DNA from: Myxococcota bacterium
GTDB lineage: Bacteria; Myxococcota; XYA12-FULL-58-9; JASMKV01
Assembly: GCA_030749035.1 (NCBI GenBank)
Contig: JASMKV010000301.1
Span: 4,523-68,522 of the forward strand
Direction: 5' to 3'
DNA: 64,000 nt
The notes under the pieces are model-generated. The model made no database searches and was not told the DNA's origin. It saw only the letters and a program-made list of their open reading frames with translations. Each line of letters opens with the position of its first letter. The stretch's first letter is position 1. The translations under genes and the position numbers were made by a program. This document shows, one piece after another, positions 38,852 through 49,281 of the stretch.

Positions 38852-40672
38852 CTATTCCTTTTTACGTGGACGCTTGAGTCCATAGCTCTCCAGGCGATTA
38901 ATGAGTGTTCTTCTGGACACACCGAGTTCTGCTGCGGCTTTTGTCTGATTTCCTCCGCAACGCTCCAAGGCCTCCATGATGATTTTTTGTTGTTCATCAT
39001 CATCTTTTTTTCGTAATTGATCTGCTGGCCTCGAAGAACCTCCTCCTAGAGCAGAAAACTGCTGCGTCGGCTCATCGTCAAGAAGAGGTATATGGTTTGA
39101 GACTCCGGAAAATTGATTTTGTGCTGAAAGCAGTGAGTTGGTGCTCAATTTTTCAAGCGGTAAATGCTCAGCTGCAATCGTTCCCGAGCCACACAAGAGA
39201 ACTGCGCGGTCCATAATATTACGTAATTCCCTAATATTGCCCGGCCAGTGATAAGCCTTGAGGCGCTCCAAGGCCTCTCCCGATAATACGGGTATCCGGC
39301 TGTTATGATCACGTTCGCAAACCATCTTAATAAAAAGATGCGCAAGATTTTTCACCTCGCTAATACGCTCGCGTAAAGGCGGAATAATCACAGAAATACC
39401 ATTGAGGCGAAAATAAAGATCTTGTCGAAAGTTTCCCTCCGTAATTTCATCTTCTAAATTACGGTTTGTCGCCGCAATAAAACGCACATCAATAGATTTT
39501 TCCTGCATGCCCCCAACGCGCTGCACTTTGCGATCTTCAAGCACCCGTAAAAGTTTTACCTGCACACTCATGGGCAACTCACCGACCTCATCGAGAAAGA
39601 CACTTCCGCCATCGGCCGACTCTAAAAGTCCTGGCTTCGAAGCCACAGCACCCGTAAATGCTCCTTTTTCATGTCCAAAAAGTTCACTTTCAAGAAGCTG
39701 TTCAGACAATGCGGCACAGTTAAGCTTAAGGTAGGGCTTTGCGCAGCGCGGTGACTTTTCATGAATTTGTGCCGCAAAGACTTCTTTTCCCACACCGGTT
39801 TCACCAAGCAGCAAAACACTAATATTGGATCGCGCAATACGCTCAATCAATCGATGTAGGTTTTGCATCACCGGATCTTCGACAACAATCGCATCCCCAA
39901 CCTGATCGTCAAGCACATCACCCGACAAATCAGCACAAGCTTTGGCCATTAACTCACCGGCACTCTTTTCTTGTGGATAGAGCGCATAACCGCTGGTCAC
40001 CGAATAGTCATTTGCCCGTAAAACTTCTTCCGTTTGATGCACAAAGGCCTGAATATTTTCAGCAACAGCATTCAGTCGTAAAATTTCATACTCCCCCGGA
40101 GGGCCATATGTTCCAACAACATCAACAGAAGATAAAAGCTCTTCAAAGCAACTCGGCGCTGAGTCAAGCTCTTCTCCCTTCACACGCAACCGGATTAAAG
40201 CAAACGCAGACTGCTCTTGCGCGGCGCGCAAACACTCCTCTTCCAACCGTATTTCGAAATAGTCGTGCCCACATAAACGCCTTGGACGCGTTGTCTTTCG
40301 TGTCTGCTGAATCAACAATGTATTTGTACCGATTTCAATAACATCGCCCAGCTCTAAAGGTACAATTGCCTCCGCCGAAAGCTGCTCATCATTGACACGA
40401 ACCCCATTAACACTTCCACAATCCTGAATCTGTAAGGGTGGACCCATGTGCAGTATTGCATGCTTTCTTGATACCGCAGGATCATCCAAGCGCACATCCA
40501 CACCTGATGCTGCGCGGCCTATACTGAGCTGCCCTATAGATGGCAAAGGATAAGTCACAGCCCCTTGCTCTCCAACCACTGTTAACCTTAAACGGCTGGT
40601 GCGCGCGTCGGGGACTTCTATAATTTGCTGCGTAGAGAAATTATCTGGCGTATCAAAATCGTTCTTCGACAT
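38852..40672 (-). CDS. Sigma-54-dependent transcriptional activator (bacterial enhancer-binding protein) with an N-terminal FHA domain and a C-terminal Fis-type HTH
   Basis: The FHA region reads (…LSIGRAASGVDVRLDDPAVSRKHAIL…GSVNGVRVN…). The AAA+ core has GETGVGKE, the GAFTGA motif ESELFGHEKGAFTGA and the R-finger region. A C-terminal HTH is present. Confidence 0.85.
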   Translation of the reverse strand: MSKNDFDTPDNFSTQQIIEVPDARTSRLRLTVVGEQGAVTYPLPSIGQLSIGRAASGVDVRLDDPAVSRKHAILHMGPPLQIQDCGSVNGVRVNDEQLSAEAIVPLELGDVIEIGTNTLLIQQTRKTTRPRRLCGHDYFEIRLEEECLRAAQEQSAFALIRLRVKGEELDSAPSCFEELLSSVDVVGTYGPPGEYEILRLNAVAENIQAFVHQTEEVLRANDYSVTSGYALYPQEKSAGELMAKACADLSGDVLDDQVGDAIVVEDPVMQNLHRLIERIARSNISVLLLGETGVGKEVFAAQIHEKSPRCAKPYLKLNCAALSEQLLESELFGHEKGAFTGAVASKPGLLESADGGSVFLDEVGELPMSVQVKLLRVLEDRKVQRVGGMQEKSIDVRFIAATNRNLEDEITEGNFRQDLYFRLNGISVIIPPLRERISEVKNLAHLFIKMVCERDHNSRIPVLSGEALERLKAYHWPGNIRELRNIMDRAVLLCGSGTIAAEHLPLEKLSTNSLLSAQNQFSGVSNHIPLLDDEPTQQFSALGGGSSRPADQLRKKDDDEQQKIIMEALERCGGNQTKAAAELGVSRRTLINRLESYGLKRPRKKE

Positions 40673-41496: not shown

Positions 41497-42225
41497 CTAC
41501 CCAGATTCCCCAAGTAAATGGGCGATGATCCCTGTGGCCAACGCGCGCGCAATCGTTTCCTGATAATCTTTATTCGCCAATTTTTTGCATTCTTCACTGT
41601 GACTCAAAAAGCCTATTTCCACGAGTATCGCCGGCATACGAGAACGCCATAAAACAGCAAAAGGCCCCTCTAAAACACCTTTATCTGGTGTATCCATATT
41701 TTCTGCCAAATGGCTTTGTACGCGATGGGCTAAACGTTGACTCTCAACATAAGCACCATTCAAAGCTAAATCCTGAACAATAAAATCGATATTGGCCTGC
41801 GGCTCAGTATCTAAAATAATGCCCTCATTTTCACGTTCAGCCAAACGATGCACACGCTTGTTGGCTACCCTGCGCGACAAAATAAAAGTTTCCACACCCT
41901 GTACATTTTTCAATGGCGAAGAGTTGGCGTGTATAGAAACGAAAGCTTTCGCCCCAAGTCGGTTTGCCATCTGAGCACGTTGCGCCAAATCCACATTACG
42001 ATCTTCAAAACGCGTCACCACACTTTCAACTAAATTTGAGCGTTCAATAATATGGTGAACTCGCTTGGCAATGTGCAGAACCAGATCTTTTTCAACCAAC
42101 CCACACACACCACGCGCCCCTGATTTCTCACCCCCATGGCCCGGATCAATAACCACAATCGGTTTTGCTTCAGCAAGCACCAAAGTCAAAGAGAAGAAGA
42201 GCCAATTCATCCTATGCCTATACAC
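41497..42225 (-). CDS. N-acetylmuramoyl-L-alanine amidase (Amidase_3 / AmiC family), secreted
   Basis: A signal peptide, then VVIDPGHGGEKSGARG, …FVSIHANS… and …VETFILS…. Confidence 0.8.
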   Translation of the reverse strand: MYRHRMNWLFFSLTLVLAEAKPIVVIDPGHGGEKSGARGVCGLVEKDLVLHIAKRVHHIIERSNLVESVVTRFEDRNVDLAQRAQMANRLGAKAFVSIHANSSPLKNVQGVETFILSRRVANKRVHRLAERENEGIILDTEPQANIDFIVQDLALNGAYVESQRLAHRVQSHLAENMDTPDKGVLEGPFAVLWRSRMPAILVEIGFLSHSEECKKLANKDYQETIARALATGIIAHLLGESG

Positions 42226-42352: not shown

Positions 42353-44050
42353 ATGTTTTTGAACAAAACCACGTGGCCCGTTTTTTTGATCGCACTTTTT
42401 TTGGTCTCACCAACCTGGGCGCAGGATGAGGTTGCCAGCACCGATGAAAGTGCTGCTGCAGAAGATGTCAACGAAACCGTCAATGCCGACGCAACGGTGA
42501 ACGAAACGCAAGAGACCTCCGAAACGACTGAAGGAGCTCAAGCTGCAGAAGGTGAAGAGGCTGCGGAAGCTGCAGAAGCTGCAGAAGGCGCAGAAGGCGC
42601 AGCAACAGAGGAAGAGATCGAAGCACAGGCAGAAGAGATGAATAAATTTCACAAAGGTGACTTAGGCTTAGCTGGAAGCCCTGAGCTGGAAAACCCCAAT
42701 AACTCTATTTTCATCGGTATGGGTTATTACAATATTGGTGGTCTTCTTGATGGTAAGCACTACGCAGAGGTAACCCCCAGCCTTAATTTTCATTTTCCTT
42801 TTACCGAATCGAAGAAATTAACACTCAGGGCCGAAATACCACTGCGCATCCTTGCCCTCAATCGCACCAGTGATGGCGAAGCACCCGGATCGATACGCGC
42901 AGAAGATTATGATGAAACTGGCGATTATCTTAAAGTCATCAAGCAAATACGACTGGGCAGAAAAGAAGACAAACTCTTTGTGAATGTGGGACGACTCAAT
43001 GGTGTGACTGTCGGACACGGTACTGTGATGCGCCGCTACAACGCAAATTTGGATCCAGATCGCACACGTGTTGGTTTTCAGCTTGATGCGTATAACGACT
43101 ATGGTGGATTTGAAACATTTATGGCCGACCTTGCGCTGCAGTCGCGTGTGATTGGTGCCTTAGGTTTTATCAAACCCATGGCCCTGTTTTCAGACAATCC
43201 AATCGCGCGCTCCCTCTCTTTAGGCCTCCATTATACAGCTGATTTAAATGCACCAAAGACCCTCACCACAGCTGAAAACTCTCTAAGTGTCGCGACGGAT
43301 GATTACGGTTATCCACTCTTTAGTGAAACTCAAGTTGGCATTATTGGTGCGGACTTTGAAGTCAAACCCATACGTCTGGGGAATGCTTTTGACCTCAAAG
43401 TTTATGGTGATTTAAGCCTCATCGCGAATGCCGGTAACGGAATGACCGGTGGTCTTCTCATGCGCTCCAATTTAGGCTCTCTACCTTATCTGCATGCTTT
43501 TCGGGTCCGCATGGAGGGAAGAACTTATTCCAACAACTATCTCCCTCAGTATTTTGATGGCCTCTATGAAATCCAAAAATTTAGTTTTGATCGTGGCTCA
43601 CAAAGTGGTGGTCAAAAAACAAAATACGAGACGGTTGTCGAAGCTGAAAATACTGGGCGCCATTTTAGTCTCTACAGTGAAGCGTTTTACGCACTCGTGG
43701 ACCGACTGGTTGTTGGAGGCGGCATTGAAAGCTTACTCGATGAAGGGCTCTATAACCTCATGCTGCATCTTGAAGTGCCCGCATCAAGCGTCATACAACT
43801 CTATTTCACCTATTATAAAAACTTCTACAGTGACTTAGCAAAATCATTTGCCCGCGCAGAAGGCGAAAGCTTTAGCTTTGAGTCAGATACGGTGCTCTAC
43901 GCAAACATGCGCGTCATGGTGCTGCCTATTCTCTTCATGAATGCGGGCTTAAAACAAACCTATCAATGGGACGAAAATTATGGCGCTTCGGGTGGGTATA
44001 ACCCCACCATGGATTTTGTCATCAACGCCCAACTTGGACTTGAGTTCTAA
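42353..44050 (+). CDS. Putative outer-membrane β-barrel protein with a signal peptide and an N-terminal acidic Ala/Glu low-complexity repeat
   Basis: The signal peptide reads MFLNKTTWPVFLIALFLVSPTWAQD. An (AEGAE/EAAEAAE) acidic tract follows. The body has alternating-hydrophobic β-strands, and the C-terminus …NAQLGLEF ends in Phe. Confidence 0.5.
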   Translation: MFLNKTTWPVFLIALFLVSPTWAQDEVASTDESAAAEDVNETVNADATVNETQETSETTEGAQAAEGEEAAEAAEAAEGAEGAATEEEIEAQAEEMNKFHKGDLGLAGSPELENPNNSIFIGMGYYNIGGLLDGKHYAEVTPSLNFHFPFTESKKLTLRAEIPLRILALNRTSDGEAPGSIRAEDYDETGDYLKVIKQIRLGRKEDKLFVNVGRLNGVTVGHGTVMRRYNANLDPDRTRVGFQLDAYNDYGGFETFMADLALQSRVIGALGFIKPMALFSDNPIARSLSLGLHYTADLNAPKTLTTAENSLSVATDDYGYPLFSETQVGIIGADFEVKPIRLGNAFDLKVYGDLSLIANAGNGMTGGLLMRSNLGSLPYLHAFRVRMEGRTYSNNYLPQYFDGLYEIQKFSFDRGSQSGGQKTKYETVVEAENTGRHFSLYSEAFYALVDRLVVGGGIESLLDEGLYNLMLHLEVPASSVIQLYFTYYKNFYSDLAKSFARAEGESFSFESDTVLYANMRVMVLPILFMNAGLKQTYQWDENYGASGGYNPTMDFVINAQLGLEF

Positions 44051-44136
44051 GCGTTTTTTATCTGGAAGCTTTGTCATGCCTTATAAAACAGCGCGGCAGT
44101 CCGTAAAACGCTCGGCGTATTTATCTGGATGACTTT

Positions 44137-45876
44137 TTAGATTAAATGCTTGCTTACCGCAAGAATGTTGCCACAGAGGTGACAAATAAATGGTGGCCAA
44201 ATACTTTTGTATCTTAAGTTCAAGAAGGCTAAAGGCAGACCGGACAAAATGATCACCATCGAAACCCAATAATACTGACTCCAAAAAGGACTCGCCGCAA
44301 ATGGCCAATAACTTAAGTGATAAAATCCCCAGAGAATAGAGCTAAAAAGAATAATCGGAATTGATTTATTGATTTGGGTCTGGAGCAATCGAGTCAGAAA
44401 AACTCGAAAGAAAAATTCATCCACCAATACCCCCAAAGGCATCAACCAAACGCTCGCATCAAAAACCTCAAATAAACCATGCTGAGGCCACATCAAACCT
44501 GCCCCAGACCCAATAAGGGCCGCCAAAAAACATCCAATAAAAGAAAAGCGCCACCCCACCCCCTTTAAAATACTTGAGAGGCCTGCGTCTTCCAATAAAT
44601 ATAGGCCAATAAGGCCCGCAACTAAAAGTATACCTCGACGCAAAGAACAAAAAGGAATATTGAAAAGATAAAGGTATTCACCTTGAGCATAACGTGGACC
44701 CAAGAAAATTAAACTTCCTACGGCCACAAAGACCATGCTCCAAACCAACGCCAGCCGCCCCAGATGAAATGACTCTCCAACTTCAACATCCGGTTCTTGC
44801 TTTTCTTCAATCGTTTCTTTTTCAGCTTTGTCGGCCTGTGCGCTCGCTTTAGAAATTTCGCTGTCAAATTGCTTTTCTTCTTCGGTTTCAGGATGCATTG
44901 CGGCTTCAAGTGAAGCGGATATAGGCAAAGTCGATGGTTCATCGACCAATGTCACTAATCCTTGGCGAATCAATAAATAAAAGGTTTGCAGCACCTGATC
45001 ATAAACATGCGCCATGCCCAAATCAAATTCACTTAAGATCTGACCAGAGCGCATCCCCGATGACATCAACGCAAGGATGTCAATTTCTATACCATTGAGC
45101 TGTTCTACGACCGCTTCAAGCTCAGGTTCAATGCGATAATACTTTTTATTCACAATTAACCGTGCTCTTAAATGCTCGAAGAGCTGATCTTCATTTGCCC
45201 GCTGCCAAATTGCCCCTGCCCGCATCACATCGAGAAATGTTCCATCAATCACAGGGCTCACTTTATTTGGGCGGTCATCCTCGAAAAATGTAATCTTCCC
45301 TTGAGCCCATGAAAAAGCCTCGGCAACCCGATCGAGCGACTGTTGGCGCAAGGCTTTAATAAGCTCATGTGTCTTCATGACGCCTTCGCGCAAGATCACC
45401 CAGCCTAAAAAGAGTTTTTCATCACGCGCCATTTTCTGTAACGCGTGAACACGTTGCTCTTCGATGTAACCCTCACGAACAAGAAACCGCGTGAGCAGTT
45501 CCTCGGGGATATTCGAATTGGCTGTATGCGGAACACCGTGTGCAATCGCAACCACTTTTGTTTTTGTGCCATGCTTCAGCACTAAAAAACCGCTGGCACT
45601 TTCCATATAAAGACGCAAGAGGACTTCTTCAATAGACGACTCCTCTAATGTCGCCGCTAAATAGGCCTTCTGCCGTTCAAGAATATCTGTTTTGGCATTG
45701 AGCGCTAAAGAGCGACTCATGCGAATCAATTGCAAAACAGCGGCGCCACGAACATGCTCAGATAAATCCGCTGGCTTTAAGGTTCCTTTTTGTAGGCCAT
45801 CTAAAAGTGCAAAATCATTCAGCTCATCGAGATAAGCCAACGGATTTTCTTCATCCGGATTATAATTTATCGGCAT
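44137..45876 (-). CDS. Fusion protein: a ~330-aa N-terminal soluble domain of unknown function, an acidic linker, and a C-terminal CPBP-family (CAAX protease / Abi) intramembrane metalloprotease domain
   Basis: The C-terminal TM region carries the CPBP motifs EE-like …VDEFFFRVFL…, …WGFYHLSYWP… and …FICHLCGNI… The N-terminal 330 aa have no hits by eye. Confidence 0.55.
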   Translation of the reverse strand: MPINYNPDEENPLAYLDELNDFALLDGLQKGTLKPADLSEHVRGAAVLQLIRMSRSLALNAKTDILERQKAYLAATLEESSIEEVLLRLYMESASGFLVLKHGTKTKVVAIAHGVPHTANSNIPEELLTRFLVREGYIEEQRVHALQKMARDEKLFLGWVILREGVMKTHELIKALRQQSLDRVAEAFSWAQGKITFFEDDRPNKVSPVIDGTFLDVMRAGAIWQRANEDQLFEHLRARLIVNKKYYRIEPELEAVVEQLNGIEIDILALMSSGMRSGQILSEFDLGMAHVYDQVLQTFYLLIRQGLVTLVDEPSTLPISASLEAAMHPETEEEKQFDSEISKASAQADKAEKETIEEKQEPDVEVGESFHLGRLALVWSMVFVAVGSLIFLGPRYAQGEYLYLFNIPFCSLRRGILLVAGLIGLYLLEDAGLSSILKGVGWRFSFIGCFLAALIGSGAGLMWPQHGLFEVFDASVWLMPLGVLVDEFFFRVFLTRLLQTQINKSIPIILFSSILWGFYHLSYWPFAASPFWSQYYWVSMVIILSGLPLAFLNLRYKSIWPPFICHLCGNILAVSKHLI

Positions 45877-46015
45877 GGTATCCTATGCTTATGCCAAAAC
45901 CCCGCTACAAACAATGTTTTGACCTCGATAAAATCCGATAACTACCTGAAATACATGTGGAACTGGCTTGAAAAAGAGCTTTTAACCTGGACCTGGTACG
46001 CGTTACACTAGAACC

Positions 46016-46720
46016 ATGAGTACACGCATAGAAAGTGGCATCTCCACCCAGCTCAACCCCAACACCACAAACTTGAGTTCCGCTGGACAAAATCAGCAAA
46101 TACAAAGTGTGGGTCAACAAGTCCAACAGGTCCTTTTTGGCAAACCCAAACCCGTTATTCTCGATCCAGCAAAATTCCCACAAGTTGCAGAGCAATTAAA
46201 ACTTTTGCGGAAATATAAAAAAAAGATAGCCAATATGGCAGACGATGATGAGCATGATTATGAGCTGGCCTTAACCCAAAGCGCTATTGCCATGATTGAT
46301 GCGCAGGGAACCATCTATATGGGCGTCGAGTTTTTAATGGCCAATAAAGAAAACCCCGAAATTATTCTTGGAGCCCTTGCGCATGAAATAGGCCATCAAC
46401 CCAAACGCTGGAAAGAATACCAACAACAACACCTGCTCACAAAAGAAGAGATGCAACTCATCTGCCGCCACGAAGAAACACGTGCGGATCTTTTTGCCGG
46501 CTCCGCCTTGGCTGAACTCGGCTTATCTTGCGAGCCCATGATTCAATTCTTAAAAGATATAGAGGAAGGACCCCATCCCGAATACTTTCCTGCACAGACA
46601 CGGGGTGAAGTGATTCGCGAAGCACATCAAAGTCGAAATTATCGAGCAAAAAATCGCCGTAAAATATTTCCAAACTTTGATCGAATGACTTCCGTCAAAG
46701 GGCATCTTGGCGAGTTCTAG
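46016..46720 (+). CDS. Small HExxH protein resembling the ImmA/IrrE (DUF955, M78-like) metallopeptidase fold, with a Gln/Ser/Thr-rich N-terminus
   Basis: …ILGALAHEIGHQ… (HExxH) is followed ~30 aa later by …EETRADLFAGSAL… (the E…A[ND]xFA..LL pattern of DUF955). There is no signal peptide. Confidence 0.45.
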   Translation: MSTRIESGISTQLNPNTTNLSSAGQNQQIQSVGQQVQQVLFGKPKPVILDPAKFPQVAEQLKLLRKYKKKIANMADDDEHDYELALTQSAIAMIDAQGTIYMGVEFLMANKENPEIILGALAHEIGHQPKRWKEYQQQHLLTKEEMQLICRHEETRADLFAGSALAELGLSCEPMIQFLKDIEEGPHPEYFPAQTRGEVIREAHQSRNYRAKNRRKIFPNFDRMTSVKGHLGEF

Positions 46721-47687
46721 ATAGGCTGTTCGTCCATAGCTTTTCAATCACAATGGCGAATAATATCACAAAAACGTAGGTCATGACGCCCAATGTATCA
46801 TGCGCAATATTCCAATAATCGATATTGCTGGAAAACCAGTAGGCGCAATAACAACTCAATATGATGCGTAAGGTGTTACCAATAAACCCACCCAGGAAAA
46901 CCAAGATCAAAAATCGAAGGCTTCTGTCTATTCGCCTCGCATATAACACCAACGACAGCACAAGGGACAAAGTTTGTAGGGCCACAAATGTCTGCACACC
47001 CGCACAAGCCGATGTCACAGTGAGTCTGAACCCCTCACCTTCAATGGTCTGCAGGGCCTCTGGACGAATCAGCGTGTTGAGCCCTGCTTTGCTGACCACA
47101 AATTCTGAGAGATAGGCGGTCACTTCGCATAACTTTAAATCAACCAACGGCCCCAAAATATAATCCCAAGGGCAGACGAAGAAGCCCAAGAGAGAGGGCA
47201 CCAGCCAAAAAGAGAGTTCAAAACACCAAAACAAAGCGCGCACTAAAAAAGCAAACGACAATGCCCACAACACTGGATGCACAAACATTGCCCCCAAAGC
47301 AAAGAGCCCGCTTAAGCCCAGCCAAAACCAATAGTTGGAGTTCAAATCAGGCTTTTTTTCGCTATCTCGCTGAGCATCAATAAAAAAGAGCAGCCCCGCC
47401 AAAAGTGCGCAAAGGGAGCGTAAAACCGCCTGCGACTCAATCCAATAAAGGCGCTCCAAATAAAAGAAGAAAGGTATGTGCAGCCCAACCCCTAAAACGA
47501 GCCCCAATGCTTTCTGCTTATCTATTACTTTCAACAGCTTAACACCCAAAGAGCAGCCTAATCTTTCGCCACTAAAAGCACAATCTCTTCTTGACACAAA
47601 GACAATCCAAGAGGCATATGTGCACGTATTGACAGGAGAAAATGATGAGCGCTGCACAAAATATCCCTTTAGCACAACAGGAATCAA
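46695..47687 (-). CDS. Exosortase/archaeosortase-family polytopic membrane protein (putative transpeptidase)
   Basis: About 8 TM helices. A Cys-containing motif …[13 protein letters not shown]… (compare exosortase ACSG) is followed by an Arg and a …GNTLRI… (Asn-x-x-Arg) motif, consistent with the exosortase catalytic residues. Confidence 0.5.
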
Positions 47688-47689
47688 CC

Positions 47690-49120
47690 ATGCATACGGA
47701 CTTTAAAGTTAAAGATCTTAGCTTGGCCGAATGGGGCCGAAAAGAAATCAAATTGGCCGAAATCGAAATGCCCGGCCTGATGGCACTTCGACAGGAATAT
47801 ACGGCAGAAAAACCTCTAAGTGGTGCACGTATTACCGGCTCATTACATATGACCATTCAGACTGCCGTTCTTATCGAAACCCTTGTCGAACTCGGCGCCA
47901 AGGTTCGCTGGGCCTCTTGTAATATTTTTAGCACCCAGGACCATGCTGCTGCTGCGGTTGCCGTTGGACCGAACGGTACTGTAGAAGCACCCAATGGTGT
48001 TCCTGTTTTTGCCTGGAAAGGTGAAACCCTGGATGAATATTGGTGGTGCACTGAGCAAGCGCTGACTTGGCCAGGTGAACTTCCGAATATGATACTCGAC
48101 GATGGTGGCGATGCAACCATGATGGTCATTGAAGGCGCCAAATTCGAGCAGGCCGGCGCTGTTCCAACACCTAAAGACAATGATCCTGACGATTGGATCT
48201 CGCTCTTAAGTGCGCTGCAAAATGCTTTTAATCAAAATCCAAACACATGGCGCCCAATGCTCAAATCGATTAAAGGCGTGACCGAAGAAACGACAACTGG
48301 CGTGCATCGCCTCTACGAAATGGCCAAAGAAGGCAGCCTGCCCTTCCCTGCCATCAACGTGAATGATTCGGTGACCAAAAGTAAATTTGACAATATTTAC
48401 GGCTGTCGCCACTCTTTGGTCGACGGTATTATGCGTGCAACAGATGTCATGCTTTCAGGCAAAACCGCACTCGTATGTGGCTATGGTGATGTCGGTAAGG
48501 GTTGTGCGCAATCTTTACGCGCCCAAGGTGCCAGAGTCGCGATCACTGAAATTGACCCGATTTGCGCGCTACAGGCCTGTATGGAGGGCTATGAGGTCGT
48601 CCAACTCGAAGATGTTCTGGCCACCACAGACATTTTCATCACGGCAACAGGAAATTACAATGTCATTAGCGCCGAACAAATGGCCAAAATGAAAAATAAC
48701 GCCATTGTTGGGAATATTGGCCATTTTGACAATGAAATTGATATGGCAGGCTTAAGTAAACTTGCAGGCATCAAGTGCGAAAACATCAAGCCTCAAGTCG
48801 ATCGCTGGGAATTCAGCGATGGGCATAGCGTGATTGTGTTGGCCGAAGGGCGCCTGCTTAATCTGGGCTGCGCCACAGGGCATCCGAGCTTTGTCATGTC
48901 CAACAGCTTTAGCAATCAAGTGATTGCACAAATAGAGCTCTTCAAACATACCGACAAATATGAGGGTGTGCAGGTTCTACCCAAGCATTTGGATGAAAAA
49001 GTGGCGCGATTACACCTGGATAAACTCAACGCAAAGCTCACCATCCTCAGTGATGAACAAGCCAACTACATTGGTATCCCTAAGAATGGACCCTATAAGC
49101 CCAATCACTATCGATACTAG
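47690..49120 (+). CDS. ahcY: Adenosylhomocysteinase. The ORF is open from 47642, but the start at MHTDFKVKD is preferred
   Basis: …[17 protein letters not shown]… is a conserved N-terminus. The NAD-binding motif is GYGDVGKG, and …GHFDNEID… is present. Confidence 0.95.
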
Positions 49121-49125
49121 GCTTG

Positions 49126-49281
49126 ATGGCAACCTATAAGGTCATCTTAAAGAAGCTTAGCGATGGCACTTTTGATGCGCGTTACAATGCCACCATTGTG
49201 GGTATGGCAGAATCCACCGGCAACTCAGAAACCGCAGCCCTCGATCTGCTCCCTAAGGAGATACGCTATCGCATTGAGTGA
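49126..49281 (+). CDS. Unannotated 51-aa ORF resembling the UPF0150 / HicB-like antitoxin N-terminal fold
   Basis: Manual translation gives MATYKVILKKLSDGTFDARYNATIVGMAESTGNSETAAALDLLPKEIRYRIE*. It matches the M-x-YKV-x-L…DG-x-[FY]-x-A…G…G-x-T-x-E-x-A…L pattern of small HicB/UPF0150 proteins. It is below the 60-aa ORF cutoff. Confidence 0.4.
   Translation: MATYKVILKKLSDGTFDARYNATIVGMAESTGNSETAALDLLPKEIRYRIE

Follow-up and report, generated by a model that had tools for sequence, protein, structure and literature searches.

Gene content of the locus

The DNA analysed here is a 64,000-nucleotide (64-kb) stretch of contig JASMKV010000301.1 from a Myxococcota bacterium (hereafter the window), and our subject is a run of four adjacent genes in it, A to D, the last of which encodes an exosortase-family protein. 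A sequence-only reading of this DNA had described the four as an island of putative envelope-associated proteases and processing enzymes next to a surface β-barrel. We found that D belongs, as judged from profile searches, to an unnamed exosortase subfamily whose members elsewhere directly follow a gene for a very small glycine-rich protein, and that A, B and C are probably unrelated to it. The four open reading frames (ORFs) were confirmed at the following coordinates, given here with two flanking genes:

41497-42225, minus strand: Amidase_3 (N-acetylmuramoyl-L-alanine amidase), a synteny anchor that also lies close to C in distant relatives
42353-44050, plus strand: gene A, 565 amino acids (aa), a secreted protein that is hydrophobic at its N-terminus, has an acidic Ala/Glu region and ends in ...GLEF
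44137-45876, minus strand: gene B, 579 aa, a fusion of a PatA_N/DUF4388 domain with a CPBP (Rce1-like) domain
46016-46720, plus strand: gene C, 234 aa, an M48-like HExxH zinc peptidase
46695-47687, minus strand: gene D, 330 aa as the longest ORF, an exosortase-family protein
47642-49120, plus strand: ahcY (S-adenosylhomocysteine hydrolase), divergent from D

By the ORF coordinates the strand order from A to D is plus, minus, plus, minus, and the alternating strands therefore make A, B, C and D four separate transcription units with no shared transcript. C and D converge, and their 3' ends overlap by 26 nucleotides (46695-46720). This overlap of stops is kept in three related contigs (L001, L005 and L009) and holds where D is only 60% identical. 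The GC content is flat over the A-D region and housekeeping genes in conserved synteny flank it, so that the word 'island' overstates the case. Measured against a relative that is 80-92% identical (L001), the ratio of nonsynonymous to synonymous substitution rates (dN/dS) is 0.04 for both A and C, 0.06 for B and 0.12 for D; these low values show that all four are real genes, each of them under purifying selection. In the NCBI annotation of the metagenome-assembled genome (MAG; locus tags QGI45_09865-09875, proteins MDP7039454-6), A and C are each called 'hypothetical protein' and B is a 'type II CAAX endopeptidase family protein' (PGAP).

Gene D encodes a divergent exosortase-family protein

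Consistent with the family assignment in the sequence-only reading, D scored 61.4 bits against PF09721 (cut-off 25.7) and 39 bits against the exosortase/archaeosortase signature TIGR04178 (cut-off 23), and its hydropathy profile has about eight transmembrane (TM) helices, an approximate count. Cys, Arg and His are the presumed catalytic triad of exosortases (Haft, 10.1101/2023.06.07.544157). In D, residues C228, N271, R274 and H296 are invariant among the seven members of its clade, down to 56% identity, and they are also invariant in an 18-sequence alignment that includes relatives at 20-29% identity. The Cys, Arg and Asn positions, the loss of which had been named beforehand as evidence against an exosortase, are thus all retained. 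Subtype classification with hidden Markov models (HMMs) placed D in no named Xrt subtype: none of the NCBIfam models for XrtA-X, CrtA-C or ArtA-E reached its cut-off, the best being XrtA with 39.4 versus 208. The longest ORF of D starts at a TTG at 47687; the true start is likely to be further in, between about 47597 (GTG) and about 47540.

We then searched a profile of the D clade against 1.84 billion representative proteins. Only 48 proteins matched at E ≤ 1e-3, and of these roughly 20 were close to full length. The best matches outside the D clade were P0129, a partial protein of 189 aa, followed by P0130, P0131, P0132 and P0133, and the ten relatives that we scanned (P0130-P0136, P0138, P0139 and P0145) are unclassified exosortase-family proteins in NCBIfam. 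When a profile was built from these ten relatives, with the D clade left out, D matched it end to end with 130 bits, from D residue 59 and over positions 19-287 of the 290 in the profile. A score of 130 bits to the subfamily profile, compared with 61 bits to the general Pfam model, indicates that D is a divergent member of an unmodelled subfamily. D shows 22-29% identity to relatives that themselves show 37-47% to the sequence serving as reference in their alignment, and several motifs of the subfamily are altered in D (PFE to PWD, LQ..TA to LC..TA and STHAA to SCYCA). On these comparisons, D is a long-branch, divergent member of an unnamed exosortase subfamily.

Relatives of D follow a mini-protein gene

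Genomic contexts were recovered for seven subfamily members outside the D clade (L014-L017, L023, L024 and L025), that is, for every such relative with upstream sequence available. The seven loci represent about five independent lineages, L015 and L017 being close relatives. An ORF of 62-65 aa lies directly upstream of the exosortase gene, on the same strand, in all seven, and the best full-length matches to D (P0130, P0131 and P0133) all have it upstream. The mini-protein ORFs, each encoding about 64 aa, are:

L014, 2215-2409, same strand as the exosortase gene
L015, 408-605, same strand as the exosortase gene
L016, 742-936, same strand as the exosortase gene
L017, about 7602-7787, same strand as the exosortase gene
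L023, about 1731-1931, same strand as the exosortase gene
L024, 2-190, same strand as the exosortase gene
L025, 7834-8025, same strand as the exosortase gene

The mini-proteins share a common layout, as exemplified by that of L025, MRQYGNILLGTAFLMLCYAAPALAGGGGGGGGVRAVSVPWIGTDVLAGLQLATAAVWWWRRNR. An N-terminal signal peptide ends in A-x-A or V-L-A; a Gly-rich stretch has eight Gly in five of the seven loci and is interrupted in L014 and L016; and usually a V-x-V-P-like motif borders directly on a hydrophobic TM helix, after which the protein ends in a basic tail rich in Arg and Lys. Variants of the motif are VSLSLVP/VSLSLLP in L015 and L017 and NVP in L014. Out of 5520 six-frame segments, an HMM built from four of the mini-proteins independently picked out those of L024 (E = 1.7e-6) and L023 (E = 1.2e-5). 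A comparison of L015 with L017 gave a dN/dS of 0.09 (dS is saturated, at about 2), and a purine-rich sequence resembling a ribosome-binding site precedes the ORF in three loci. These data support the mini-protein as a real, homologous coding gene. Neither Pfam nor NCBIfam (release 20) recognizes the mini-proteins, and no CTERM sorting domain was detected in them.

Two other origins of the small ORF were considered and rejected. The ORF in L017 might have been the frame-shifted N-terminus of the exosortase, but separately initiated homologues of 62-65 aa occur in the six other loci, and full-length exosortases follow the mini-protein in L014, L023, L024 and L025. Nor is the Gly run a homopolymer artefact of assembly, as various GGN codons make up the run and their choice varies from locus to locus.

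Genes tend to adjoin when a sorting enzyme has a single target (PMC3237569), and in exosortase substrates the signature motif abuts the TM helix (10.1101/2023.06.07.544157). From the tripartite layout and the adjacency, and by analogy with such systems, we infer that the mini-protein is the dedicated substrate of the subfamily exosortase.

A second gene recurs on the downstream side. In five of the seven loci, an Lnt-like gene (LNT_N plus CN_hydrolase) is convergent with the exosortase gene and overlaps its 3' end by 73-139 nucleotides:

L015, 1224-1601, convergent with the exosortase gene: Lnt-like gene
L016, 1558-2952, convergent with the exosortase gene: Lnt-like gene
L017, 8405-9802, convergent with the exosortase gene: Lnt-like gene
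L023, 2734-4164, convergent with the exosortase gene: Lnt-like gene
L025, 8816-10252, convergent with the exosortase gene: Lnt-like gene

The product of the L017 gene scored 124 bits against TIGR00546 (lnt), just below the cut-off of 132.9, and the neighbour is either the housekeeping lnt or a dedicated paralogue. The complete order in L025 is gltA (minus), ahcY (minus), mini-protein (plus), exosortase (plus) and Lnt-like gene (minus). The sequence-only reading had looked to genes kept together with the exosortase; such genes exist among the relatives, namely those for the mini-protein and the Lnt-like protein, but neither is present in the window.

The window lacks both partner genes

The ATG of ahcY, at 47642, lies only 45-100 bp from the plausible starts of D, and so there is no room between them for a mini-protein ORF. 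The window shares the divergent pairing of ahcY and the exosortase gene with L025, where the mini-protein gene sits in the corresponding gap. The mini-protein HMM found nothing in the window (best E = 2.9) or in the close relatives L001-L009. Across the 64 kb, a scan of ORFs for a C-terminal TM helix with a basic tail gave nothing convincing, and a scan for Gly runs gave no mini-protein candidate; the small intergenic ORFs (between ahcY and dnaE, around gltA and after 59574-60107) are unrelated and include no mini-protein candidate either. A tblastn search for Lnt found none in the window, and it is C that overlaps the 3' end of D instead. The earlier statement that no sorting-signal substrate is visible therefore holds for the whole window.

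One gene of the window has a counterpart next to the mini-protein loci:

59574-60107, plus strand: 177-aa membrane protein next to gltA, with no Pfam match

This protein is homologous to the product of the gene upstream of the mini-protein/exosortase pair in L014 and L023 (27-30% identity; BLASTP E = 5e-13 to L023:936-1637, and a tblastn match to L014), and the L014 and L023 homologues match each other with E = 3e-26. The homology indicates that, in the window clade, a rearrangement probably separated D from its ancestral upstream neighbours, which would now lie about 12 kb away. It is possible that this membrane protein is an additional component of the mini-protein/exosortase system.

Properties of proteins A, B and C

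B proved to be a CPBP fusion protein as described in the sequence-only reading, with 49.9 bits against PF02517 (Rce1-like CPBP; cut-off 22.4) and 41.3 bits against PF14332 (PatA_N/DUF4388; cut-off 25). An acidic linker connects the cytoplasmic PatA_N/DUF4388 domain to the CPBP (Rce1-like) intramembrane protease at the C-terminus, in which hydropathy gives five to six TM segments within residues 375-554 and which has the CPBP-type motifs DEFFFR, FYH and HLCGN (for EExxxR, FxxxH and HxxxN). B is not one of the myxosortases, which the same reading had mentioned, as judged by NCBIfam: its scores lie far below every myxosortase cut-off (Mrt_core, 16.8 versus 100 bits; MrtS, 24.8 versus 130; MrtJ, 16.6 versus 75). 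Homologues of B adjoin C in L009, L017 and L018, and B is absent from the exosortase flanks in the three GC-rich loci L023, L024 and L025. The word-index homologue searches were shallow, giving six close relatives for D and two for B.

Beside the PatA_N domain, residues 111-180 or so of B gave weak matches to c-di-GMP-binding MshE-related and NfrB models (E of 0.02-0.05), and a distant B homologue, L017:10769-12892, gave the same weak matches. They hint at possible control of the CPBP protease by a nucleotide second messenger.

C is a cytoplasmic, soluble protein and probably an M48-like zinc peptidase. Its invariant residues are H123, E124 and H127 together with E153, E154 and D158. A disordered, Gln-rich segment makes up the N-terminus, and there is no signal peptide and no TM helix, contrary to the envelope association previously assumed. 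C scored 16.7 against the Pfam model for peptidase M48, just below the cut-off of 20.3, and Foldseek returned no significant match. The proposal of a DUF955-like, ImmA/IrrE-type protein is supported neither by PF06114 nor by the closest fold, and an M48-like assignment is preferred. There are 250 homologues of C, at 50-97% identity. In seven more distant contigs (L010, L012, L019-L022 and the P0095 contig), exosortase and CPBP genes are absent within 7-8 kb of C, which stays near Amidase_3, dnaE, ahcY, gltA or pterin-4a dehydratase. C is thus a lineage-wide gene in a housekeeping synteny block, conserved independently of D.

On one 2.9-kb metagenome contig (L005:1871-2813), the C homologue, cut down to 161 aa, directly adjoins a GPW_gp25 (TssE-like) gene, which reflects either a real rearrangement or a chimeric assembly.

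The Ala/Glu repeat noted earlier in A is present:

42540-42602, plus strand: tandem repeat within A, a 9-nucleotide unit in about six copies that encodes (Ala-Glu-Ala/Gly)n

Pfam and PDB searches with A gave no match. Residues 135-278 match the N-terminal third of NCBIfam ImpL63 (NF047543; E = 2.3e-20, 72.8 bits versus a cut-off of 1000). A single-sequence AlphaFold model was uninformative (predicted local distance difference test score 29.6), and the only features suggestive of a barrel are the C-terminal ...GLEF and the absence of TM helices. Outside the window, only the closest relatives (L001 and L002) have A, and in L017 the amidase directly follows B with no A in between. A is a clade-specific secreted protein.

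Elsewhere in the window, a gene for an FHA-domain sigma-54 enhancer-binding protein (38852-40672, minus strand) lies upstream of a GT2 glycosyltransferase gene and the amidase gene, and is syntenic in L001. Two tandem paralogues on the plus strand (53144-55792, 882 aa; 55936-57852, 638 aa) each combine an Asn/Thr/Pro/Arg-rich low-complexity N-terminal region with a conserved C-terminal part of about 500 aa; L009 carries a 918-aa homologue. A 52-aa ORF, MMATYKVILKKLSDGTFDARYNATIVGMAESTGNSETAALDLLPKEIRYRIE, is located at 49123-49281 (plus strand) within the 370-bp gap between ahcY and dnaE.

Relationship of the four genes and role of D

The close relatives L001-L009 (TARA and other marine metagenome contigs) share the A-D arrangement, and they share dnaE, ahcY, the amidase and other neighbours as well. 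One MAG labelled 'uncultured Bdellovibrionales' carries a locus of the D clade with the same synteny. As neighbouring genes are equally shared among these close relatives, the arrangement says nothing specific about A-D. We favour, with moderate confidence, a reading in which D is an active exosortase-type cysteine peptidase/transpeptidase whose ancestral dedicated substrate was the Gly-rich mini-protein, no longer adjacent to it, and in which A, B and C are unrelated to D, the four being neighbours through lineage-specific synteny in a marine Myxococcota clade and not one processing system. In the relatives, the exosortase gene stands directly after the mini-protein gene, usually with the Lnt-like acyltransferase gene convergent downstream. 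In the window clade, a rearrangement would have removed both partners from the locus, leaving ahcY abutting D and C overlapping its 3' end. The substrate gene would now lie elsewhere in the genome or have been lost; in the former case, D would presumably act on a substrate encoded at a distance.

Several observations weigh against this reading. Its central step, processing of the mini-protein by the exosortase, is putative and drawn by analogy, and action of D on a remote target is an assumption, the substrate of D not having been found within the 64 kb. D evolves two to three times faster than its neighbours (dN/dS 0.12 versus 0.04-0.06), and in L009 it is 62% identical compared with 85% for B and C; such faster evolution would also fit a partial loss of function. 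A residual link between D and B is possible, because loci with D, C and B as neighbours fall into two groups, the window clade and L017/L018, that seem separate on the C tree, with loci lacking D between them; this is a weakly resolved neighbour-joining tree on 142 columns. NCBIfam also holds models that join exosortases and CPBP proteases, namely TIGR03008 (pepcterm_CAAX) and TIGR04162 (the XrtE exosortase/protease fusion).

The latter points bear on the view of the sequence-only reading that A-D form an envelope-processing module, in which D and B, possibly with C, would process sorting-signal cargo encoded elsewhere. L017 and L018 keep D, C and B together although D is there only about 25% identical, D and B are present or absent together at the locus (both are missing from the seven distant C contigs), and the NCBIfam names attest to known exosortase-CPBP associations. 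However, the alternating strands preclude an operon and hence co-transcription, C is a cytoplasmic protein found in those seven contigs with neither D nor B, and in L023, L024 and L025 neither B nor C flanks the subfamily exosortase. In addition, A is absent from L017, B falls short of the myxosortase cut-offs, and the housekeeping genes dnaE, gltA, amidase and rph share the same synteny, so that adjacency carries little information. We consider a joint module improbable.

Two further explanations concern D and the mini-protein. One possibility, which we rate as unlikely although slightly less so than the module, is that D became an orphan on losing its mini-protein and Lnt-like neighbours and is now drifting or repurposed, for example for a non-sorting membrane function, with no tripartite-signal substrate. 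The absence of both partner genes from the locus and from the 64 kb, the long branch of D, its faster evolution and its altered motifs are as this would predict. By contrast, a dN/dS of 0.12 still means clear purifying selection, the Cys, Asn, Arg and His residues persist in all seven clade members, and the 64 kb cover little of the genome. Alternatively, the 64-aa protein of the relatives may form a two-TM hairpin and serve the exosortase as a subunit or regulator, with the true cargo encoded elsewhere in each of their genomes. Removal of both termini would leave only about 15 residues, unusually few for a sorted protein, and the databases detect no sorting domain in it. Yet an A-x-A-like site closes the N-terminal segment immediately ahead of the Gly run, the C-terminal motif abuts a TM helix and then an Arg/Lys cluster, which is the tripartite architecture of exosortase targets (10.1101/2023.06.07.544157), and adjacency to the enzyme is a hallmark of dedicated systems (PMC3237569). 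A subunit or regulator thus seems to us about as improbable as the module.

If D and its relatives are indeed exosortases with a dedicated mini-protein, a more specific and tentative proposal can be made. The subfamily may represent an undescribed dedicated system of Myxococcota-like bacteria in which the exported mini-protein loses its signal peptide and its sorting signal and is left as an oligoglycine peptide some 15 residues long (Gly8-x-x-x-V-x-V-P at most loci), with the window clade keeping the enzyme while the mini-protein gene moved elsewhere. In this proposal, the neighbouring Lnt-like acyltransferase may modify the peptide; alternatively, the free N-terminal oligoglycine may serve as the nucleophile in transpeptidation, yielding a lipopeptide, a polymer or a cyclic peptide. 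Neither NCBIfam release 20 nor Pfam contains a model for the combination of this exosortase subfamily and mini-protein, and literature searches for exosortases with a connection to oligoglycine or Myxococcota brought up no account of it. A-D themselves are ordinary members or variants of known families. What exosortase substrates become attached to, and whether the enzyme acts as a one-step transpeptidase, are still open questions (10.1101/2023.06.07.544157). If the proposal is true, a single tiny adjacent substrate with a conserved acyltransferase-like neighbour would make a simple test system for exosortase chemistry, with a product traceable by mass spectrometry on one short peptide. For annotation, the lesson is that A-D should not be treated as one system, that C is best called M48-like and that D is a target-less, fast-evolving copy of its subfamily.

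Comparison with known systems

A resembles Leptospira ImpL63 through a partial profile match and is a distant relative of it, lying far below the equivalog cut-off and carrying the added acidic Ala/Glu repeat. ImpL63 serves as an inner-membrane-associated reference protein in Leptospira (PMC2698987), whereas an outer-membrane barrel had been proposed for A. The M48 family includes HtpX, BepA and Ste24/ZMPSTE24 as well as a soluble member (PDB 3c37); C, which lacks TM helices and a signal peptide, forms its own tight family, with 50-65% identity, confined to Myxococcota-like MAGs. B shares with the myxosortases (MrtC, MrtX, MrtJ and MrtS, which process MYXO-CTERM and related signals) membership of the CPBP family of intramembrane proteases, occurrence in Myxococcota and intact catalytic motifs. 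It differs in its cytoplasmic N-terminal region of about 370 residues with the PatA_N domain and in its scores below the cut-offs, and no Cys-containing sorting-signal cargo is seen alongside it.

D agrees with the exosortase/archaeosortase family (PF09721, TIGR04178) in its TM helix number, in the Cys, Arg and His residues (plus Asn) and in scores above the family cut-offs. It departs from that family in that neither D nor its relatives reach the cut-off of any named subtype, and in that the copy in the window has no adjacent target and does not lie within an exopolysaccharide (EPS) locus. As in dedicated exosortase systems, the relatives of D have an adjacent upstream gene, the product of which runs from a signal peptide through a motif and a TM helix to a basic tail. 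Here, however, a 64-aa mini-protein built around an oligoglycine core takes the place of a folded surface protein as the putative target, and its motif is VxVP-like and not PEP. VP-type variants of PEP-CTERM are known (VPLPA-CTERM/XrtD, VPXXXP-CTERM, VPDSG-CTERM/XrtC and VPEID-CTERM/XrtE), and mini-proteins of the relatives likewise place V-P at the start of the C-terminal TM helix (VPALTP in L024 and VPSPS in L023). For several relatives, XrtD ranks among the named models with better scores, yet these amount to only 39-67 bits versus a cut-off of 400. L015 and L017, with their VSLSLVP and VSLSLLP motifs, have no clean VP, and the resemblance to the VP-type systems is a lead taken from family names.

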